Sequence record: OZ346187.1
Reading direction: 5' to 3' (one strand)
Length of the DNA: 64,000 bases
DNA from: a phage
A program made the position numbers and the translations under genes. Shown here piece after piece: positions 31,007 through 60,789 of the stretch (its first letter is position 1; each line of letters opens with the position of its first letter). The notes under the pieces were generated by a model, which was given only the letters and a program-made list of their open reading frames with translations, ran no database searches and was not told the origin of the DNA.

Positions 31007-32332
31007 ATGAGTAAAACCAAATTAGAACTAACCTGGATAGGTAAAAACGAGCGCAAAAAGTTAGAGCCGCACATTTTGTTAGAAGATTCTAGCAAGTCTT
31101 ACCACAGCCAGAAAGTGACCGAAAACGATATTTTTGATAATAAACTGATTTTTGGAGATAACTTATTAGCATTGAAGGCGCTAGAGCAAGAGTATGCAGG
31201 CAAAGTGAAGTGTGTTTACATAGACCCACCATTCAATACTGGAAGGGCTTTTGAGCACTACGATGATAGCCTTGAGCATTCCATTTGGCTGGGCTTAATG
31301 AGGGATAGGTTAGAAATAATTCGTAATCTTCTAAGTGATGATGGGGTAATATTCGTTCACTTAGATGATTGCGAAATGGCGTATTTAAAAGTTTTGATGG
31401 ACGAGATTTTTGGTCGTGCAAATCAGTTAAATACCATATCGATGACCACAAATTCCCCTTCGGGATTTAAGGCAACAGGAGCCACAGTTTTCTCCACAGC
31501 AAACTTTTTGCTTGTATATGCAAAAGATCGCACCCAGAAACCGCTTAACAAAATCTATATACCTAAAGGGTATGATACAGGATATAACAAATACCTATTA
31601 AACCCGGATGACCATTATAAAAATTGGACGTGGTGCGGTATTGCCGATGCGTTTGCAAAGGCCAATGGCTATAAAGATGCAAAAGAGGCCAAGAAAAAAC
31701 TGCCTGATACATTCGATGATGAATTAGCACAATTCGCAATTGATAATGCAGAACGTGTATTTCAATCTGTTGCAATCGGCGGTGGTGCTAAAATAAAGAG
31801 AAAAGAAACTATCGAGAAGTCAAAGAAAGATAGGGATAAGGTTTATGTACATCCAAATGAAGATGTTGAAGGATTTTATATCGTAAATGGTAGGCAAATG
31901 GTCTTTTACTCCAACAGGCTTTTGGAAATTGACGGTGATATGCAACCTGCGGAACTAATAACTGATGTTTGGACAGACATTAGTTGGAATGGAATAGCAA
32001 ATGAAGGCGGCGTTAGTTTCAAAAATGGGAAAAAACCAGAAGCGCTTTTGAAGCGAATTTTCGAAATGTGTACGCGAGAAGGCGATTTGGTATTGGATTC
32101 ATTCGGTGGTTCGGGAACTACTGCTGCTGTAGCTCACAAGATGAAAAGACGTTGGATCTCAATCGAGCTAGGTGATCATTGTCATACCCATATTATTCCG
32201 CGCTTGGAAAAAGTGATCGATGGTGAAGATCAAGGTGGTATTTCTAAGTCTGTAAACTGGGAAGGTGGTGGTGGCTTCCGCTATTACAAACTTACCCCGA
32301 CCTTAATTGCGAAAGATAAGTCTGACCAATAA
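31007..32332 (+). CDS. beta-class DNA N6-adenine/N4-cytosine methyltransferase (441 aa)
   Basis: Catalytic VYIDPPFNTG (motif IV) near the N-terminus and SAM-binding DSFGGSGTTAAVA (motif I) near the C-terminus, the IV-before-I order of beta-class amino-MTases. Confidence 0.8.
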   Translation: MSKTKLELTWIGKNERKKLEPHILLEDSSKSYHSQKVTENDIFDNKLIFGDNLLALKALEQEYAGKVKCVYIDPPFNTGRAFEHYDDSLEHSIWLGLMRDRLEIIRNLLSDDGVIFVHLDDCEMAYLKVLMDEIFGRANQLNTISMTTNSPSGFKATGATVFSTANFLLVYAKDRTQKPLNKIYIPKGYDTGYNKYLLNPDDHYKNWTWCGIADAFAKANGYKDAKEAKKKLPDTFDDELAQFAIDNAERVFQSVAIGGGAKIKRKETIEKSKKDRDKVYVHPNEDVEGFYIVNGRQMVFYSNRLLEIDGDMQPAELITDVWTDISWNGIANEGGVSFKNGKKPEALLKRIFEMCTREGDLVLDSFGGSGTTAAVAHKMKRRWISIELGDHCHTHIIPRLEKVIDGEDQGGISKSVNWEGGGGFRYYKLTPTLIAKDKSDQ

Positions 32333-32345
32333 AGAGTACAATCAA

Positions 32346-32651
32346 ATGATGAAACGTTATAAACCATACACTTTTGAAATCGATTTCGAACTTGACGATA
32401 TGTTCACTGTGGAAGCTCAGGCAGTTGTCCAGTTGCCAGACCCAGAGTGCCGTGATTCTGATGTTGACTATTACGGATTTAGACAAATTACCGATGTGCA
32501 TGTTTACCACAACGGTGAAGAGGTGGACTTCCACCAACTGCCAAACGATTTGCGACACTCAATTTACAAACGTGCAGCCCGTGAACTAGAGTCCTATCTG
32601 GATGCAGCGACGACAGCAGCTGCATTTGCTGAAGAAGTGGGAGGTTTCTGA
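32346..32651 (+). CDS. hypothetical protein (101 aa)
   Basis: First in-frame ATG at 32346 (track TTG 32307 overlaps MTase). Confidence 0.45.
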   Translation: MMKRYKPYTFEIDFELDDMFTVEAQAVVQLPDPECRDSDVDYYGFRQITDVHVYHNGEEVDFHQLPNDLRHSIYKRAARELESYLDAATTAAAFAEEVGGF

Positions 32652-33046
32652 TGATTACAGGTGTGAAGGTTATCCAATACCACTTAACCAAATTGGAAGA
32701 TGCTGAAAAAGAGCTTGCAGAAGTTCTGAATAGTGGATATACTTTGCTATCATGCGCCTGCTCAGACACCTACGCTGTGTGGACACTTATCCGGAAGGAG
32801 GAGCCTGCAGGGATCTTGGTGCCAAACCCTAAGATTATCAGTGAAGTGGATGACTGCTCTCAGGACGGCCTGTCAGAAGGCTGGGAAGTATGGGAAGGTG
32901 GTGAAAACCCTGCACCAGGTAAGTGGGTAAAATACAAACTACGTAGCGGTGCACAGCACGCTGGATACTCTGATAACCTGGACTGGAGTCATTCTTCACC
33001 GGAATCATTGGTAAGTGCATATGATATCGTTGCTTTTCAGGAATAA
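32651..33046 (+). CDS. hypothetical protein (131 aa)
   Basis: ATG overlapping upstream stop, GGAGG RBS. Confidence 0.45.
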   Translation: MITGVKVIQYHLTKLEDAEKELAEVLNSGYTLLSCACSDTYAVWTLIRKEEPAGILVPNPKIISEVDDCSQDGLSEGWEVWEGGENPAPGKWVKYKLRSGAQHAGYSDNLDWSHSSPESLVSAYDIVAFQE

Positions 33047-33058
33047 GGAGAGAGTGTT

Positions 33059-33541
33059 ATGTCAGATTTTATGTGGAAAGTAGGTTATGCCTCTCCTGAA
33101 ATGTGCGAGGCTTGCTTTGTAAAAATAGGCCGCGAGGATATTGACAAAGTGATCTTTAAGTTTCGTGATGTATCTGTGATCGGCAACCGAGTGCTTAAGC
33201 ACTTAAAGAATCTGAAGCTCACCAAAAAGAAGTTCTTCGGACTTTTCGAAGAGAAAGTTGATGCTTGGACCCATTGCATTCAGGAAGCTAAATCTCACTA
33301 CAGTGCTATCGTTACCCCAGAACGGGTAGCCAAGATGGAAGGATTCATCAACAGCACAGAGTTTGAGTGCCTAAAGGCTGCCCTTAATAGTTATCCAAAG
33401 TGCCTCAAACACCTTGACAAGTATGTAGAAAAGGATGGGGAAATGTACCTAACCCTGGACGCATATTATGAGATGCAAGAAATTTTAAATTTAGATTTGA
33501 CATTGGTATCCACCGAGTATACAATAGGTATCCGGGTTTAA
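33059..33541 (+). CDS. hypothetical protein (160 aa)
   Basis: AAGGAGAG RBS. Confidence 0.45.
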   Translation: MSDFMWKVGYASPEMCEACFVKIGREDIDKVIFKFRDVSVIGNRVLKHLKNLKLTKKKFFGLFEEKVDAWTHCIQEAKSHYSAIVTPERVAKMEGFINSTEFECLKAALNSYPKCLKHLDKYVEKDGEMYLTLDAYYEMQEILNLDLTLVSTEYTIGIRV

Positions 33542-33547
33542 CACTAG

Positions 33548-33573
33548 GCCCTGCCCGAAAGGGTGGGGCTTTT
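33548..33573 (+). terminator. rho-independent terminator, GAAA-tetraloop hairpin
   Basis: ccctgccc-gaaa-gggtgggg then cttttt; the same 22-nt core recurs at 44926-44947. Confidence 0.6.
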
Positions 33574-33592
33574 TGCATTAGGAGACAGCAAA

Positions 33593-34357
33593 TTGAAATT
33601 CATCTACAAAGAACACTACCACAAAGGTGTTGTGTGGAGTCTATTTGACGGGTCTGGTGGTGCAGTTATTGACTGGGCAAAAGCTGGGTACCTGTGCCTG
33701 TGCTTTAATGCAGAAGGTGCTGACCACGGCAGTTATGCAGAGGTGATAACCGATCATCCTAACATTCACTATGTGGATTATTGGATTGACCCATGGTTCC
33801 CTCAGGAAACTTTTTGCATGTATCCAGCTCCAGACTTTATTCTTGCATTTCCTCCGTGCACGCATTTAGCGGTATCAGGTGCTGCACATTTTAAGAAAAA
33901 GCTGGCTAAGGATCCTTTGATCCAAATTAATGCTGTAAAGGATGCTCGGGTTGCGGAAGAGTTGGGAGAGATTTACGATTGCCCGTGGCATGTAGAGAAT
34001 CCTGTAGGGGTTATGTCCACACTGTGGCGAAAACCTGATTACCGTTTTCATCCTTCGGATTATGGTGGGTATTTACCGGAGGATGATGTAAACCCCTGGT
34101 TTCCTGAATTTATAGCTCCACGTGATGCCTACCCAAAAATAACTTGCGGCTGGATAGGCAATGGATTTATAATCCCGGCCACAAAACCTGTCCCGCAAAT
34201 AGTTGACGCGGTTAGCGGGTATTCCATGCAACACGCCAAGCTGGGTGGAAAGAGTGCAAGAACGAAGATGATCCGAAGCCTCACGCCACGTGGCTGGGCA
34301 AAAGCCGTATTCTTAGCAAACGAGCCTGTAGTAAGGAGCAGAATTAATGGGAAGTAA
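33593..34357 (+). CDS. DNA cytosine-5 methyltransferase-like protein (254 aa)
   Basis: Probable TTG start at 33593 after AGGAGA; motif I-like LFDGSGG, catalytic Pro-Cys in AFPPCTHLAVSG, motif VI-like HVENPVG; short, target-recognition region unclear. Confidence 0.45.
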   Translation: MKFIYKEHYHKGVVWSLFDGSGGAVIDWAKAGYLCLCFNAEGADHGSYAEVITDHPNIHYVDYWIDPWFPQETFCMYPAPDFILAFPPCTHLAVSGAAHFKKKLAKDPLIQINAVKDARVAEELGEIYDCPWHVENPVGVMSTLWRKPDYRFHPSDYGGYLPEDDVNPWFPEFIAPRDAYPKITCGWIGNGFIIPATKPVPQIVDAVSGYSMQHAKLGGKSARTKMIRSLTPRGWAKAVFLANEPVVRSRINGK

Positions 34358-36487: not shown

Positions 36488-39400
36488 ATGAGTATGTGGA
36501 ATTTTGACTTTGAGGCCTCAGGTCTTCTGGACGAGGAAGATCTTTACTACCATTGTGGCCTGTTTAAAGAGTTGAATAAAAATAATTTTATGTTGTTTTT
36601 GCCTATCAATGATAGATCTCATTACAGTGAAGAGGAGGTTGAAAAAGCAAAACAATTTATGCTGGCAAAGCAAGATATCTATCCTAGCTGCTCTGTCCGT
36701 ATTGCGGATTTCAGCCAGCTTGAATGGTGGTTAACCGGGAACTCCGATTGGTCACCCACATCATTAAGTTGTCACAACTGTTTTAGTTATGACTTTATCT
36801 TGATGGAGAAGCTGTCTGGTATTCATTTTGATATGTTCCGTGATCCCAAGTGTATGGGGACAATCAATAATCATCAGGTGAACCTGTTCGACACTCTGCC
36901 AATGAGTCGTATACTATGGCCCGACAGACCGTTACCTAAAGGATGCCCTGATTCTGTATACAATCCTGTTACAAAACGTATGCAGCAGGTAGGTCCTCAT
37001 GGCCTAATGGCGTGGGGGTACGCTTTAGGAAACCAGAAGGTTAAAATTGATGACTGGAGAAATTTACCTCTGTGGAAGTATGTTGATCGTGTATTCGAGG
37101 ACGTTATCATCCAGGAGCTGCTCTGGAAAGAGCTGGTAGCGGAATCAAAAGGTGTATTCTACGGCAAATCTGACATGCAGAACTTTATGTACGATCCAGC
37201 CAAAGAGAAGCCGAAAGGGTTCAAGAAGATTACCTGGAAGAATGCATTACGCCGAGGCATGCTGCAGCACTTCCTGATGGAGCTGCAGGCCCGTCAGGGT
37301 GTATACTTCGACATAGATGGAGCTATTGCTTTACGTGACCGTTGCGATGCGTGGATGAAAGAAATCGCTGATCGTGTTGAACCACAACTACCTTTAAAAG
37401 AGCTGTCAATGTCTCAGCGGCCCAAGTTCCCTGAAAAGCCGTTTAACCAAGACGGGACAATCTCTAATAATGGTTGGAAATGGTTAAAAGATAAGCTTGG
37501 CTATCCTGTAGACATGAGTGCTTTAGAGTTCAAAGCCCCGCCTAAGCGAGCATTTACCTCTACAGGAGATGTCAGCAAGATGGGGATAAAATGGTGTGAA
37601 GAGATGGGCTGCAAAGACCCCGATAAGATGGCTGATTTCTTGAGAGGCTATATTAAGGGCACCTCCACACCACAACCCTTACCTAAAGAGCTGATGGATC
37701 AGGCAATAAGTGATCTGCAGCAGAAGCGAATGCCTGACTGCAAGATACCTATGAAAATCAGCAATCAGGACGACATCAAGCGATACCTAATCAGTGCTGG
37801 TTGGCTCCCAACAATGTGGAGAACTAAAGATGTAACTAAAGACAGCAAGAAGAAAGCTTTACCTGATGCAGATGTTGATGCACGAGTATATGCATATATG
37901 GACGAGCTTTTGGAGTCAGAGTATTGTGACCTAATTATCAACTTCTGGAACAAAACTGATGCTAAGTTCCAGACAACCGTGCACAAGTTCCGAAGCTTTC
38001 CTAACTCCGAAAGGATTAAAAAGGAAGTATTCGGGAAAATACGTAGAAAAGCCAGGGCACTTATTACTTCTCCGCAACTGAAAGATACGTTTGGACACCT
38101 ATGCCCAAATCTTGAAAAATTGAACGGAGAGATGGCTAAAGATATCGTCTTGTGGTTATCATTGCGAAACCGCAGATCGGTCCTTGATCCAATCAAGGAG
38201 GATAAGGTTGATACTGGTCTTCTTAATCACCCACGTTTGAAGATTGACCATAAGCTTCCTGCTAAAAGCTCTGGATTAACAAACACTTCCAGACAGAAAC
38301 ACAGTATTTGTGCAAACATGCCTAAACCATCTCCTAAAGTGGTTATGGGTAAAGAGATGCGTAGTCTGTGGGGTGTTCCTCCGGGATACTTTGAGATCGG
38401 TATTGACGGGTCCAACTTAGAGCAGCTTATCGGGGCTTGGGGTGCCTTTGAGTTCGACAACGGCCTGTATTATGATGTTGTAAGTAATGGCGATGCACAC
38501 TGTTATTCAGGAGATACACAAATTCTCACGGAGAAAGGGTGGGTGAGGTTTGAAGATCTTGATCCGGGAACACAAGTGTTCCAGTACGATCACAACACCT
38601 CGTCAATGAACCTTGTTACTCCATTAAATTACGTTAAGCGTAGTTATTGTGGGGATATGTATCATTTCCACAACAGTAGTGTGGATTTTATGGTTACAGA
38701 TCAACACAGGATGCTGACTGTGGATCACAGAAGCAATAAATTGTTTGAAGATTTGGCAAAAGACCTGAAAGCAGGTAAAGGGTCTAATTCAGGAAGAAGG
38801 TTTATCCATGCGGCAGAGTTTTATGGGAATACAACCTTATCTCCTGCCCAGGTTAATTTGCTTATTGCTATTCACGATGATGGGCACTTGCATACAAATA
38901 AGGACGGCAGCATCGTGTGCAGGATTCAGGTCGGAAAGGGAAGAAAAGTTGCAACGCTTTTAGATACTTTTTCTGCTCTAAGCCTTAGTTATGTAGAGCA
39001 GAGCGGGAAAACCACAAAAGGGGGCTTACTGGCGAGAAGGTTCCAATTCCACGTTCCGTCCTGGGTATTTGAGTTTTTGGACAACAATAAGGATTTCACC
39101 TATAACCTGATGAACCTTGATAAAGAATCTAAAAACCTGTTTATAGCTTCTTTATCTAACTGGGACGGGTGGGTATCTTCCGAAGGTGGAAAGGTTGCTT
39201 ACTACTCCCAGGCCGAGTGCAGGAAGAAATCTGTAGAGGTGGTGTCTGCGCTGGCTACTCAGTGTGGTTTACGGAATAATACGGTGGCGATTCACAAAAA
39301 AGGTCGTGCCGTGCAGCACAGAATCACAATTGGTAGCAAACAGAGAGCAGGGTTGCTGACACTATCTAAAGAGTCTGTCGAGGTGAGCGGTTCTTTGGTT

Positions 39401-39886
39401 TATTGCGTTACCGTCCCTTCTGGAGCAATCATTGTGAGAAGGAATGGTAAAGTGGCAGTGTGCGGTAACTGTAATAACGCCAAAGCTTACTCTTCTGTAG
39501 CAGGCAAGGAGATTTCCCGTAACGATGGTAAACCTATCACGTATGGGGTTATGTATGGGGCACAAAAAGATAAAGTTGCAGATATGCTGGACATCTCCCC
39601 AGAGTTGGGACAAAGGGTAATCGATGCACTCTGGGATGCCAACCCAGGTCTTAAGGGGCGCAAAGAGGATCTGGAGAAATTCTGGGAAGCAACAGGTAAG
39701 AAGTTTATCTACTCTTTTGATGGTCATGCTATCTGGACCCGATCTAAACACTCTTTACTTAATGCATACCAACAAAATGGCGGTGCATCGTTGTGTGACT
39801 TAGTTGGAATACTCATGCACCACCAGATGGTGAAGCGTGGGTGGTACGATGAAGGTGTTCGTCGTATTATTTATTACCATAAATAA
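36488..39886 (+). CDS. family A (Pol I/T7-like) DNA polymerase with 3'-5' exonuclease domain, interrupted by an intein (1132 aa)
   Basis: Exo I-like NFDFEASGL at the N-terminus; motif A-like IDGSNLEQL followed by GDAH; motif B-like RNDGKPITYGVMYG after the insertion. Confidence 0.85.
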   Translation: MSMWNFDFEASGLLDEEDLYYHCGLFKELNKNNFMLFLPINDRSHYSEEEVEKAKQFMLAKQDIYPSCSVRIADFSQLEWWLTGNSDWSPTSLSCHNCFSYDFILMEKLSGIHFDMFRDPKCMGTINNHQVNLFDTLPMSRILWPDRPLPKGCPDSVYNPVTKRMQQVGPHGLMAWGYALGNQKVKIDDWRNLPLWKYVDRVFEDVIIQELLWKELVAESKGVFYGKSDMQNFMYDPAKEKPKGFKKITWKNALRRGMLQHFLMELQARQGVYFDIDGAIALRDRCDAWMKEIADRVEPQLPLKELSMSQRPKFPEKPFNQDGTISNNGWKWLKDKLGYPVDMSALEFKAPPKRAFTSTGDVSKMGIKWCEEMGCKDPDKMADFLRGYIKGTSTPQPLPKELMDQAISDLQQKRMPDCKIPMKISNQDDIKRYLISAGWLPTMWRTKDVTKDSKKKALPDADVDARVYAYMDELLESEYCDLIINFWNKTDAKFQTTVHKFRSFPNSERIKKEVFGKIRRKARALITSPQLKDTFGHLCPNLEKLNGEMAKDIVLWLSLRNRRSVLDPIKEDKVDTGLLNHPRLKIDHKLPAKSSGLTNTSRQKHSICANMPKPSPKVVMGKEMRSLWGVPPGYFEIGIDGSNLEQLIGAWGAFEFDNGLYYDVVSNGDAHCYSGDTQILTEKGWVRFEDLDPGTQVFQYDHNTSSMNLVTPLNYVKRSYCGDMYHFHNSSVDFMVTDQHRMLTVDHRSNKLFEDLAKDLKAGKGSNSGRRFIHAAEFYGNTTLSPAQVNLLIAIHDDGHLHTNKDGSIVCRIQVGKGRKVATLLDTFSALSLSYVEQSGKTTKGGLLARRFQFHVPSWVFEFLDNNKDFTYNLMNLDKESKNLFIASLSNWDGWVSSEGGKVAYYSQAECRKKSVEVVSALATQCGLRNNTVAIHKKGRAVQHRITIGSKQRAGLLTLSKESVEVSGSLVYCVTVPSGAIIVRRNGKVAVCGNCNNAKAYSSVAGKEISRNDGKPITYGVMYGAQKDKVADMLDISPELGQRVIDALWDANPGLKGRKEDLEKFWEATGKKFIYSFDGHAIWTRSKHSLLNAYQQNGGASLCDLVGILMHHQMVKRGWYDEGVRRIIYYHK
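38501..39469 (+). mobile_element. intein with LAGLIDADG-like homing endonuclease domain inserted in the DNA polymerase (323 aa)
   Basis: In-frame insertion between GDAH and motif B; starts CYSGDTQILTEKG (Hint block A), ends ...VYCVTVPSGAIIVRRNGKVAVCGN then Cys +1; internal LLIAIHDDGH and FIASLSNWDGW resemble LAGLIDADG motifs. Confidence 0.65.
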
Positions 39887-60255: not shown

Positions 60256-60789
60256 CTACAAATGGTCGCTGAGGGTGTCAAGAAAATTATCCCGTTCTTT
60301 CTCAGAGTTTTCATGTGTGTAGCTGAAAAACATATCGAGAATAACCTTATTGATATATTCCAGCTCCTCTGTGTTCAGATGCTTAGCAGGATCTACAATG
60401 ACATCCCAAATATCATACAGACCACACTCATGATACCCATAACGCCACTCAATTGTCAAGCTGAGCGGCAAATCTTTACCGTCACAAACAACCTTCCATC
60501 TACATATGTTGGTATCTGGTCGTACCTGTGCACGGTACACCTGTACAAAATCCAATTTGAATTTGAGGTACTCGTCATACAATTTAAGCACAAAGCTCTC
60601 GATTTGTGGAGACACTTTTGCAGCAAACTGTGCGTATTTGTACTTGCACTGGATGATCTTTCTGCGTTTTGCAGTTAAATTTTTTGCCGCCAGTTGTTCT
60701 TCAGTGTATCTCCACCTACGATCAACAAACGCAACAGGGTCTTTGTCCCCATAGAGGTCTTCCCAGTTAATCAGAAGCATACCTGTCAC
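60256..60789 (-). CDS. hypothetical protein (177 aa)
   Basis: ORF in minus block. Confidence 0.45.
   Translation of the reverse strand: MTGMLLINWEDLYGDKDPVAFVDRRWRYTEEQLAAKNLTAKRRKIIQCKYKYAQFAAKVSPQIESFVLKLYDEYLKFKLDFVQVYRAQVRPDTNICRWKVVCDGKDLPLSLTIEWRYGYHECGLYDIWDVIVDPAKHLNTEELEYINKVILDMFFSYTHENSEKERDNFLDTLSDHL

Follow-up and report, generated by a model that had tools for sequence, protein, structure and literature searches.

Which bases does an rV5-like phage modify in its own DNA, by which enzymes and for what benefit? The question is raised by a 64,000-nucleotide (nt) stretch of phage DNA (sequence record OZ346187.1, hereafter the window) in which three genes resemble DNA methyltransferases. 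P1 (31007..32332, plus strand) encodes 441 amino acids (aa), P2 (33593..34357, plus strand) 254 aa and P3 (62009..62542, minus strand) 177 aa. They had been proposed from the letters alone (in the following the sequence-only reading), and all open reading frames (ORFs) and quoted motifs were recovered at their positions. P1, P2 and P3 match PHROG families with E=2.5e-63, 5e-87 (PHROG 757) and 8e-67, all of them labelled DNA methyltransferase. Hence the motif matches are not due to chance. In our best explanation, which we regard as probable, the window covers replication and early genes of an rV5-like Vequintavirus and the three genes encode stand-alone (orphan) enzymes, none of them part of a restriction-modification pair. 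They would modify bases of the replicating phage DNA.

The phage and its methyltransferase genes

The region 31007-34357 (3.35 kb) with P1 and P2 matches 118 phage records. The 25 records listed show 96.7-98.9% nucleotide identity and all belong to Vequintavirus, among them EdH4, Murica, rV5 and BASEL phages. The 534-bp gene of P3 matches 119 records, mostly with 98-100% identity. The source phage is an rV5-like E. coli Vequintavirus, a further isolate of the genus with nothing of substance different.

The gene order is common to rV5, JeffSchatz (Bas55) and WalterGehring (Bas51, accession MZ501111): rIIA/rIIB, a PIF1-like helicase, a small ORF, the 441-aa “adenine methyltransferase”, three small hypothetical ORFs, the 254-aa “Dcm-like C5 cytosine methyltransferase”, primase/helicase and DNA polymerase. 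In Bas51 three genes bear the product name N6 adenine methyltransferase. P1, P2 and P3 are already annotated in more than 100 published phage genomes with 97-99% identity to the window, as adenine, Dcm-like C5 and N6 adenine methyltransferase, respectively; their presence is already known and ordinary.

Apart from this, 16-18 records entitled “Campylobacter phage” (MG065635-MG065690), for which C. jejuni is given as host, share 97-99.6% identity with rV5-like phages of E. coli in both query regions. These are probably mislabelled or contaminant assemblies.

P3 and methylation of GATC

P3 shows the motifs T19-P20, E41-P42-C..G49 and N84-P-P-Y (YxTP, EPC..G and TNPPY), i.e. the order X, I, IV. 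An alignment of 30 relatives displays conserved R..D.Y.TP, LEPC.G.G and ITNPPYS blocks followed by a conserved Rossmann remainder and no further domain. The C-terminus extends ~90 residues past NPPY, all within the Rossmann fold. Compared with solved structures, the family profile finds ErmAM, M.TaqI (4e-5) and type I M (HsdM) subunits, and the fold of the AlphaFold model (predicted local distance difference test, pLDDT, 87) resembles the catalytic domains of Dim1/KsgA, HsdM, CamA, M.BseCI and PacII. No gene resembling a specificity subunit was found near P3 by Pfam and PADLOC scans of the neighbours. As judged from its motifs and predicted fold, P3 is a minimal N6-adenine DNA methyltransferase with gamma-class motif order and no target-recognition domain.

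The specificity can be taken from a close relative. P3 is identical to Bas51 bas51_0176 in 176 of 177 residues, the single difference being V174A. In Bas51 the retron-escape mutations D69G, D79G and T83P map to “the N6 adenine methyltransferase”, which is toxic on overexpression and triggers the retrons Asa1 and Squ1 (PLoS Biol 2025, PMC12548924). As three genes share this product name, we compared the residues at the mutated positions. D69, D79 and T83 are found only in the 177-aa protein; P1 has C/G/E, P2 F/A/I and a further methyltransferase-like protein of 272 aa (see below) Q/A/I. The published escape mutations therefore belong to the P3 ortholog. T83 is the invariant residue immediately before NPPY in the alignment of P3 relatives, and T83P removes N6-methyladenine (m6A) at GATC on phage DNA (PMC12548924). 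In the respective dataset, wild type Bas51 has 1405 methylated adenines at GATC, 509 at GTAC and 576 elsewhere, the T83P phage 35, 511 and 349 (PMC12548924). By its near identity to this protein, the specificity of P3 is assigned to m6A at GATC. The enzyme would act as a bare Rossmann-fold amino-methyltransferase (motifs X, I and IV) transferring the methyl group from S-adenosylmethionine (SAM) to N6 of the GATC adenine. The sequence-only reading had been made to depend on methylated motifs in virion DNA; in the near-identical Bas51 both GATC and GTAC are indeed methylated.

P3 had also been called “Dam-type”. This holds for the specificity but not for the family. All scores are below threshold (EcoRI_methylase 20.1 bits, Dam PF05869 19.2 bits with a cut-off of 28.1, TIGR01712 16.1 bits with a cut-off of 97), and motif order and fold are of the gamma class without recognition domain. 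Weak PF05869 matches occur in 22 of the 30 relatives, and hhalign aligns P3 with a PF05869 member only around NPPY.

On the same strand, 1.2 kb downstream of the P3 gene, a further ORF is probably linked to retron escape. This ORF (60256-60789, minus strand), with no Pfam or PADLOC match, is by conserved gene order and similar size the counterpart of the Bas51 “putative glycosidase” bas51_0171, in which the mutation R87* leads to escape from retron Asa1.

P1, an orphan of the type III Mod family

P1 is orthologous to rV5 gp230 and Bas51 bas51_0070. Its motifs are DPPF (residue 73) and FGGSGTT (residue 366). Motif IV thus precedes motif I, which is the order of the beta class, and the recognition region lies between them. 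With 144.5 bits (cut-off 26.7, E=5.9e-42) the match to Pfam PF01555 (N6_N4_Mtase) is far above threshold, and the beta-class amino-methyltransferase proposed from the letters alone is borne out. P1 also matches the PADLOC profile MTase_III (PDLC03636) with E=7.8e-204, whereby residues 1-439 cover positions 2-444 of the 575 in the profile. Among solved structures the best matches are Mod subunits of type III systems, namely those of H. pylori (6k0w, 1e-28) and EcoP15I (4zcf, 2e-24). Judged by these alignments, P1 is a Mod-family enzyme without the C-terminal ~130 positions of the family.

No Res subunit was detected near P1 in the Pfam and PADLOC scan of its neighbours. The 456-aa helicase upstream, PIF1-like by its match to PF05970 (E=1.5e-32), lacks a nuclease domain. 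P1 is accordingly an orphan of the Mod family and not part of a type III system. Type III Mods are N6-adenine methyltransferases. Because of the DPPF motif and the assignment to this family, P1 should make m6A, and we infer that it is an active adenine methyltransferase. It would have lost Res together with the C-terminal ~130 residues and most likely writes m6A at a site of its own.

The GTAC mark and a fourth enzyme

Which site could this be? GTAC methylation does not respond to T83P (509 and 511 adenines) and is thus independent of P3. The window holds 120 GTAC sites per 64 kb; extrapolated to 140.7 kb this gives ~264 sites or ~528 adenines. Together with the ~510 observed, this suggests that GTAC is near-completely methylated on both strands in Bas51. 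E. coli K-12 is not known to have a GTAC methylase, hence the mark is phage-made.

Besides P1, the relatives possess a fourth methyltransferase-like gene ~15 kb past the end of the window (Bas51 bas51_0200, MZ501111 124069-124887, minus strand). Its 272-aa product contains YYTNP, VEPSAGRG and GNPPF motifs in gamma order as well as a C-terminal region of ~140 aa; Pfam matches are only sub-threshold. P1 and this enzyme are the two candidates for the GTAC writer. Naming P1 as the writer, with the 272-aa enzyme writing another mark or being inactive, is a tentative choice that we stop short of favouring. It agrees with the independence of the mark from P3, with P1 being a strongly conserved, intact adenine methyltransferase with DPPF, and with the match between ~510 methylated adenines and ~264 extrapolated palindromic sites per 140 kb on both strands. 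However, type III Mods characteristically methylate one strand of asymmetric sites. This habit argues against a palindromic target of a family member such as P1 (E=8e-204) and fits the remaining methylated adenines better, 349 of which have no enzyme assigned. Moreover, the 272-aa gamma-class NPPF enzyme with its possible recognition region of ~140 aa is an equal or better candidate for a 4-bp palindrome. For the site of P1 there are two options, either GTAC, the mark that persists without P3, or an asymmetric sequence among the methylated adenines to which no enzyme is assigned; the 272-aa enzyme would then write the respective other mark.

P2, a compact protein with predicted C5-methyltransferase fold

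P2 corresponds to rV5 gp226 and Bas51 bas51_0074 (“Dcm-like”). The longest mechanical ORF starts at GTG 33563 inside a terminator-like hairpin, while relatives are annotated as starting at TTG 33593, with AGGAG seven bases before it. The latter start yields the length of 254 aa that had been given for the protein. Its motifs are LFDGSGG at residue 17 (motif I, FDGSGG), FPPCTHLAVSG (motif IV, with PPC at 87 and PCT at 88), ENP at 135 (motif VI) and R228-S-x-T-P near the C-terminus.

P2 itself matches no Pfam family (PF00145 included), no NCBIfam family and no PADLOC profile. Among 25 relatives with 51-80% identity, 17 match PF00145, of which three exceed the cut-off of 22 bits. The match is always confined to profile positions 4-94, so that only the N-terminal third is detected. 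In a comparison with solved structures the P2 family profile finds only M.HaeIII and DNMT3B, over motifs I-IV and with E values of 0.06-0.1. The AlphaFold model (pLDDT 86.5, predicted template modelling score 0.87) agrees. Foldseek relates it to DNMT3A/B and to an enzyme of prophage CP-933R with E~2e-5, and its fold matches only C5-cytosine methyltransferases.

Conservation argues for a functional enzyme as well. We examined 76 diverse members from 79 viral contigs, down to ~30% identity. P88-C89, S95-G96, E135, P137 and R228 are each present in 75 of the 76, N136 in 74. Conserved positions comprise F86-P-P-C89, A93-V-S-G96, K103, E135-N-P137, W145, F152 and P154, and further D178, Y180, K182, T184, W187, P195, R228-S-x-T-P-x-G-F-A-x-A and N243. 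We infer from motifs and model that P2 is an active C5 methyltransferase. It would be a minimal enzyme of this fold with the PPC cysteine as nucleophile and the ENP glutamate, most likely making 5-methylcytosine at a short motif.

Several observations weigh against this assignment. PF00145 misses the window copy, as stated above. Only 21 of the 76 members retain the first glycine of motif I, although P2 of the window has the canonical FDGSGG. Neither motif VIII (QxRxR, looked for after the conserved DYGG) nor motif X (GN) is recognisable in P2. The recognition domain is nearly absent, as only ~38 residues lie between the beta strand 184-189 and R228. Moreover, we found no cytosine-modification data for Vequintavirus in the literature searched, nor anything relevant on cytosine methylation or methylomes of Drexlerviridae. 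The palindrome statistics of the window give no pointer to a target of P2.

Could P2 then be a decayed, catalytically dead remnant? The sequence-only reading had suspected inactivity from PCT in place of PCQ. The small size, the missing Pfam and NCBIfam match of the window copy, the unrecognisable motifs VIII and X and the almost lost recognition domain point in the same direction. However, PCT is the norm in the family, and active enzymes have other residues after the cysteine, too (PCN in DNMT3B, PCS in SpCmoX). Constraint is strong exactly at the catalytic positions, with P88-C89 and E135-P137 kept in 75 of 76 members. With cysteine and glutamate of the active site practically unchanged across the family, a dead P2 is very unlikely. 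In line with this, homologs are numerous (1504 phage records; 2047 representatives when clustered at 50% identity). An intact ORF is seen in the matching Vequintavirus records that span the region (86 of 118). The gene is also preceded by a promoter and a ribosome-binding site of its own, and its end overlaps the start of the primase gene. The suspicion of inactivity is hence not upheld.

A second alternative concerns the group transferred. P2 could attach a non-methyl group to cytosine C5 or use its cofactor pocket differently, for instance like CmoX with carboxy-SAM provided by CmoA of the host. Marks of the CmoX family are SPPC, an arginine replacing N304 of HhaI and association with CmoA and CmoY (Nat Commun 2025, PMC12783734). 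SpCmoX (8yf3) is the closest solved structure to P2 by sequence identity. In pairwise BLASTP P2 scores better with SpCmoX (E=8e-4) than with Dcm. In addition PPC resembles the SPPC of CmoX and the invariant R228 lies beside the expected position of the motif X GN. CmoA is encoded by the E. coli host, and an assay of SpCmoX in E. coli BL21 with and without cmoA is part of the methods and source data of that study (PMC12783734).

The alignment of R228, however, speaks against this. The C-terminal motif of P2 shares 6 of 12 residues with motif IX of Dcm (RSLTPRGWAKAV versus RRLTPRECARLM). Averaged over the family, R-S-x-T-P-x-G-F-A scores 8.8 in the register of Dcm motif IX and at most 1.2 in motif X registers. 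The best registers, which consider sequence alone, thus place R228 on the G of GR before R350, or the motif on Dcm motif IX, but not R228 on R350 itself. In the AlphaFold model only a single terminal helix of 20 residues follows the R-S-x-T-P motif. Aligning the P2 family profile with the single sequences of E. coli Dcm or SpCmoX by hhalign recovers only motifs I-IV or IV, with low probability. Furthermore P2 has FPPC and not SPPC. CmoA or CmoY were found within 10 kb in none of the 79 diverse P2-family loci, and no Vequintavirus is among the 86 phage records encoding CmoA. By contrast, 4257 CmoA genes are located on contigs of 5615 CmoX candidates (PMC12783734). We consider a CmoX-like P2 as improbable as a dead one, if not slightly more so. 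A CmoX gene was also looked for beside CmoA in Erwinia phage pEa_SNUABM_22; the “DNA methyltransferase” nearby turned out to be a T4 Dam-type enzyme.

The P2 family across phages

P2 belongs to a widespread family. A word-indexed search returned 3546 clusters at 90% identity, and 2047 representatives remain at 50% identity with E<=1e-3. Members occur in 1504 of 50,697 phage records (~3%), mostly in Escherichia, Klebsiella and Salmonella phages, and the phage groups include T1-like, N15-like, lambdoid, RB49-like and rV5-like ones. Nearly all members have 200-260 aa. Longer members show no informative domain fusion except for one HNH fusion. We found no biochemical characterisation of the family in the literature searched.

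The genomic surroundings differ between phage groups. In a lambdoid prophage of E. coli the homolog belongs to the nin region, with a PF05869 Dam gene upstream and NinG/RusA/Q downstream; other homologs occur among the early genes of RB49-like (T-even) phages. There is no constant partner gene, which supports the orphan status of P2. In the E. coli prophage GCA_053566455.1 (4494-6747) the homolog lies two genes downstream of the PF05869 Dam gene. As a small adenine enzyme is combined with a compact C5-type enzyme in the lambdoid prophage as well, this pairing recurs in unrelated phage types.

In a wider view the family may represent a large group of minimal C5-attacking enzymes that retain the catalytic Cys and Glu but have neither canonical motif X nor recognition domain. 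Such enzymes may differ from plain sequence-specific 5-methylcytosine methyltransferases, possibly transferring another group, e.g. carboxymethyl from carboxy-SAM of the host, or modifying cytosine with very low sequence specificity during replication. We hold this to be rather unlikely, though a little less so than the two alternatives above. A minimal C5 methyltransferase remains our preferred reading of P2.

Orphan status and function

No nuclease or defence signature was detected in the ORFs flanking the methyltransferase genes using Pfam and PADLOC, in agreement with the earlier claim that no restriction endonuclease is adjacent. From this claim it had been concluded that the enzymes probably protect the phage against host restriction. 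In our view the marks would offer no general protection, their shield against methylation-sensitive nucleases being limited to the matching sites. They would also carry a cost since the GATC enzyme is sensed by retrons.

Indeed, the BASEL study describes Vequintavirinae as “exceptionally susceptible” to restriction-modification; to its authors they seemed “to lack any effective protection”. Its panel consisted of EcoKI, EcoRI, EcoRV, EcoCFT_I and II, and EcoP1. This speaks against protection, and for these systems a protective role is contradicted. The result is still compatible with narrow protection at sites containing GATC or GTAC, which are outside that panel. The protective reading of the orphan methyltransferases is therefore weakly supported. 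Retron triggering and toxicity on overexpression are the only demonstrated phenotypes of the GATC enzyme (PMC12548924).

Alternatively, the methyltransferases could serve mainly the phage itself by marking replicated DNA, by escape from MutH/Dam-directed processing or by control of packaging or expression. The stop codon of P2 overlaps the primase/helicase start (34347) by 11 nt, which places P2 within the replication module, and P1 belongs to the same module. The lack of protection from any restriction-modification system tested in Vequintavirinae would suit an internal role, as would the fact that GATC is not avoided in the window (observed/expected 0.86). However, T83P, D69G and D79G knock-in phages plate on retron hosts like the control without retron (PMC12548924); the GATC mark is thus not essential under laboratory conditions. 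Moreover, GTAC is strongly depleted as would be expected under past restriction pressure. Together with CTAG it is the most depleted 4-bp palindrome of the window (observed/expected 0.56 each). Taken together, a mainly internal role appears unlikely, and we retain orphan enzymes with narrow, site-bound effects as the preferred explanation.

Two further observations concern palindromes. GTAC is depleted in the window although it seems to be fully methylated in Bas51. Among 6-bp palindromes several are scarce, e.g. TGGCCA (0 versus 7.7 expected) and CGATCG (1 versus 6.6 expected).

Neighbouring features

Three small ORFs (~100, 131 and 160 aa; 32349..33541, plus strand) without assignable function separate P1 and P2. 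They match PHROG 4240, 11995 and 12900 and are hypothetical in rV5, JeffSchatz and Bas51. Neither Pfam nor PADLOC gives a match, and there is no sign of a restriction system among them. The first (32349-32651, plus strand; PHROG 4240), directly downstream of P1, weakly matches (E=4e-5) the C-terminal region of PHROG 1573 “DNA methyltransferase”.

Upstream of P2 the consensus scan predicts a sigma-70-like promoter at 33497..33525 (plus strand; TTGACA-17-TACAAT, 11/12 matches). The annotation of rV5 has a sigma-70-type promoter, P231, in this position. Between this promoter and the start of P2, a G+C-rich hairpin followed by a T-run is predicted at 33546..33571 (plus strand; 11 pairs, 7 of them G-C). 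It resembles a terminator, and related records carry a terminator feature under the matching region. The order within 33497-33592 is thus promoter, terminator-like hairpin and start of P2, so that transcripts from this promoter would need read-through or be attenuated.

Further downstream, the DNA polymerase ORF (36488-39886, plus strand, 1132 aa) harbours an intein-like insert starting with CYSGDTQILTEKGW, for which the Pfam match to Hint_2 is sub-threshold (E=9e-4). The polymerase gene of Bas51 is instead interrupted by homing-endonuclease genes.

Comparison with known systems

Our analysis chiefly confirms annotation: rV5-like phages hold several orphan methyltransferases, among them a GATC enzyme with published activity and a published cost, the triggering of retrons. 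To predict what limits therapeutic Vequintavirus phages, be it restriction systems, modification-dependent nucleases or retrons, such marks need to be known. Of interest beyond the annotation are the writer of the GTAC mark and the P2 family, whose members come from ~1500 sequenced phages of Escherichia, Klebsiella, Salmonella and other hosts.

The closest known systems are the relatives themselves. rV5 (gp230, gp226 and a 177-aa ORF) and the BASEL phages JeffSchatz (bas55_0069/0073) and WalterGehring (bas51_0070/0074/0176) have the same genes in the same order with 96-100% nucleotide identity.

P1 is similar to the type III Mod subunits (EcoP15I 4zcf, H. pylori 6k0w, PDLC03636) over its whole length, including the beta-class order and the central recognition region. 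It differs by the absence of Res nearby and by ending around profile position 444 of 575.

P2 shares the catalytic-domain fold, the Pro-Cys of motif IV, the Glu of motif VI and FDGSGG of motif I with the C5 methyltransferases (PF00145: M.HhaI, M.HaeIII, Dcm, DNMT3A/B). In contrast, it has only 254 aa compared to 270-470 aa, ENP instead of ENV, PCT instead of PCQ, ~40 residues at most for a recognition domain and no recognisable QxRxR or GN. SpCmoX (8yf3; PMC12783734) consists of 372 aa, carries SPPC and an Arg for the Asn of motif X and is usually encoded beside CmoA/CmoY, whereas P2 has no such neighbours and its R228 does not fall on R350.

P3, finally, should by its 176/177 identity behave like the Bas51 N6-adenine methyltransferase, i.e. 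write m6A at GATC, be toxic on overexpression and trigger retrons. With the phage Dam-like methyltransferases (PF05869, TIGR01712) it has NPPY, the small size and the GATC specificity in common but stays below the curated cut-offs. Motif order X-I-IV and fold are those of the gamma-class enzymes M.TaqI and HsdM, from which P3 differs in having neither recognition domain nor specificity subunit.

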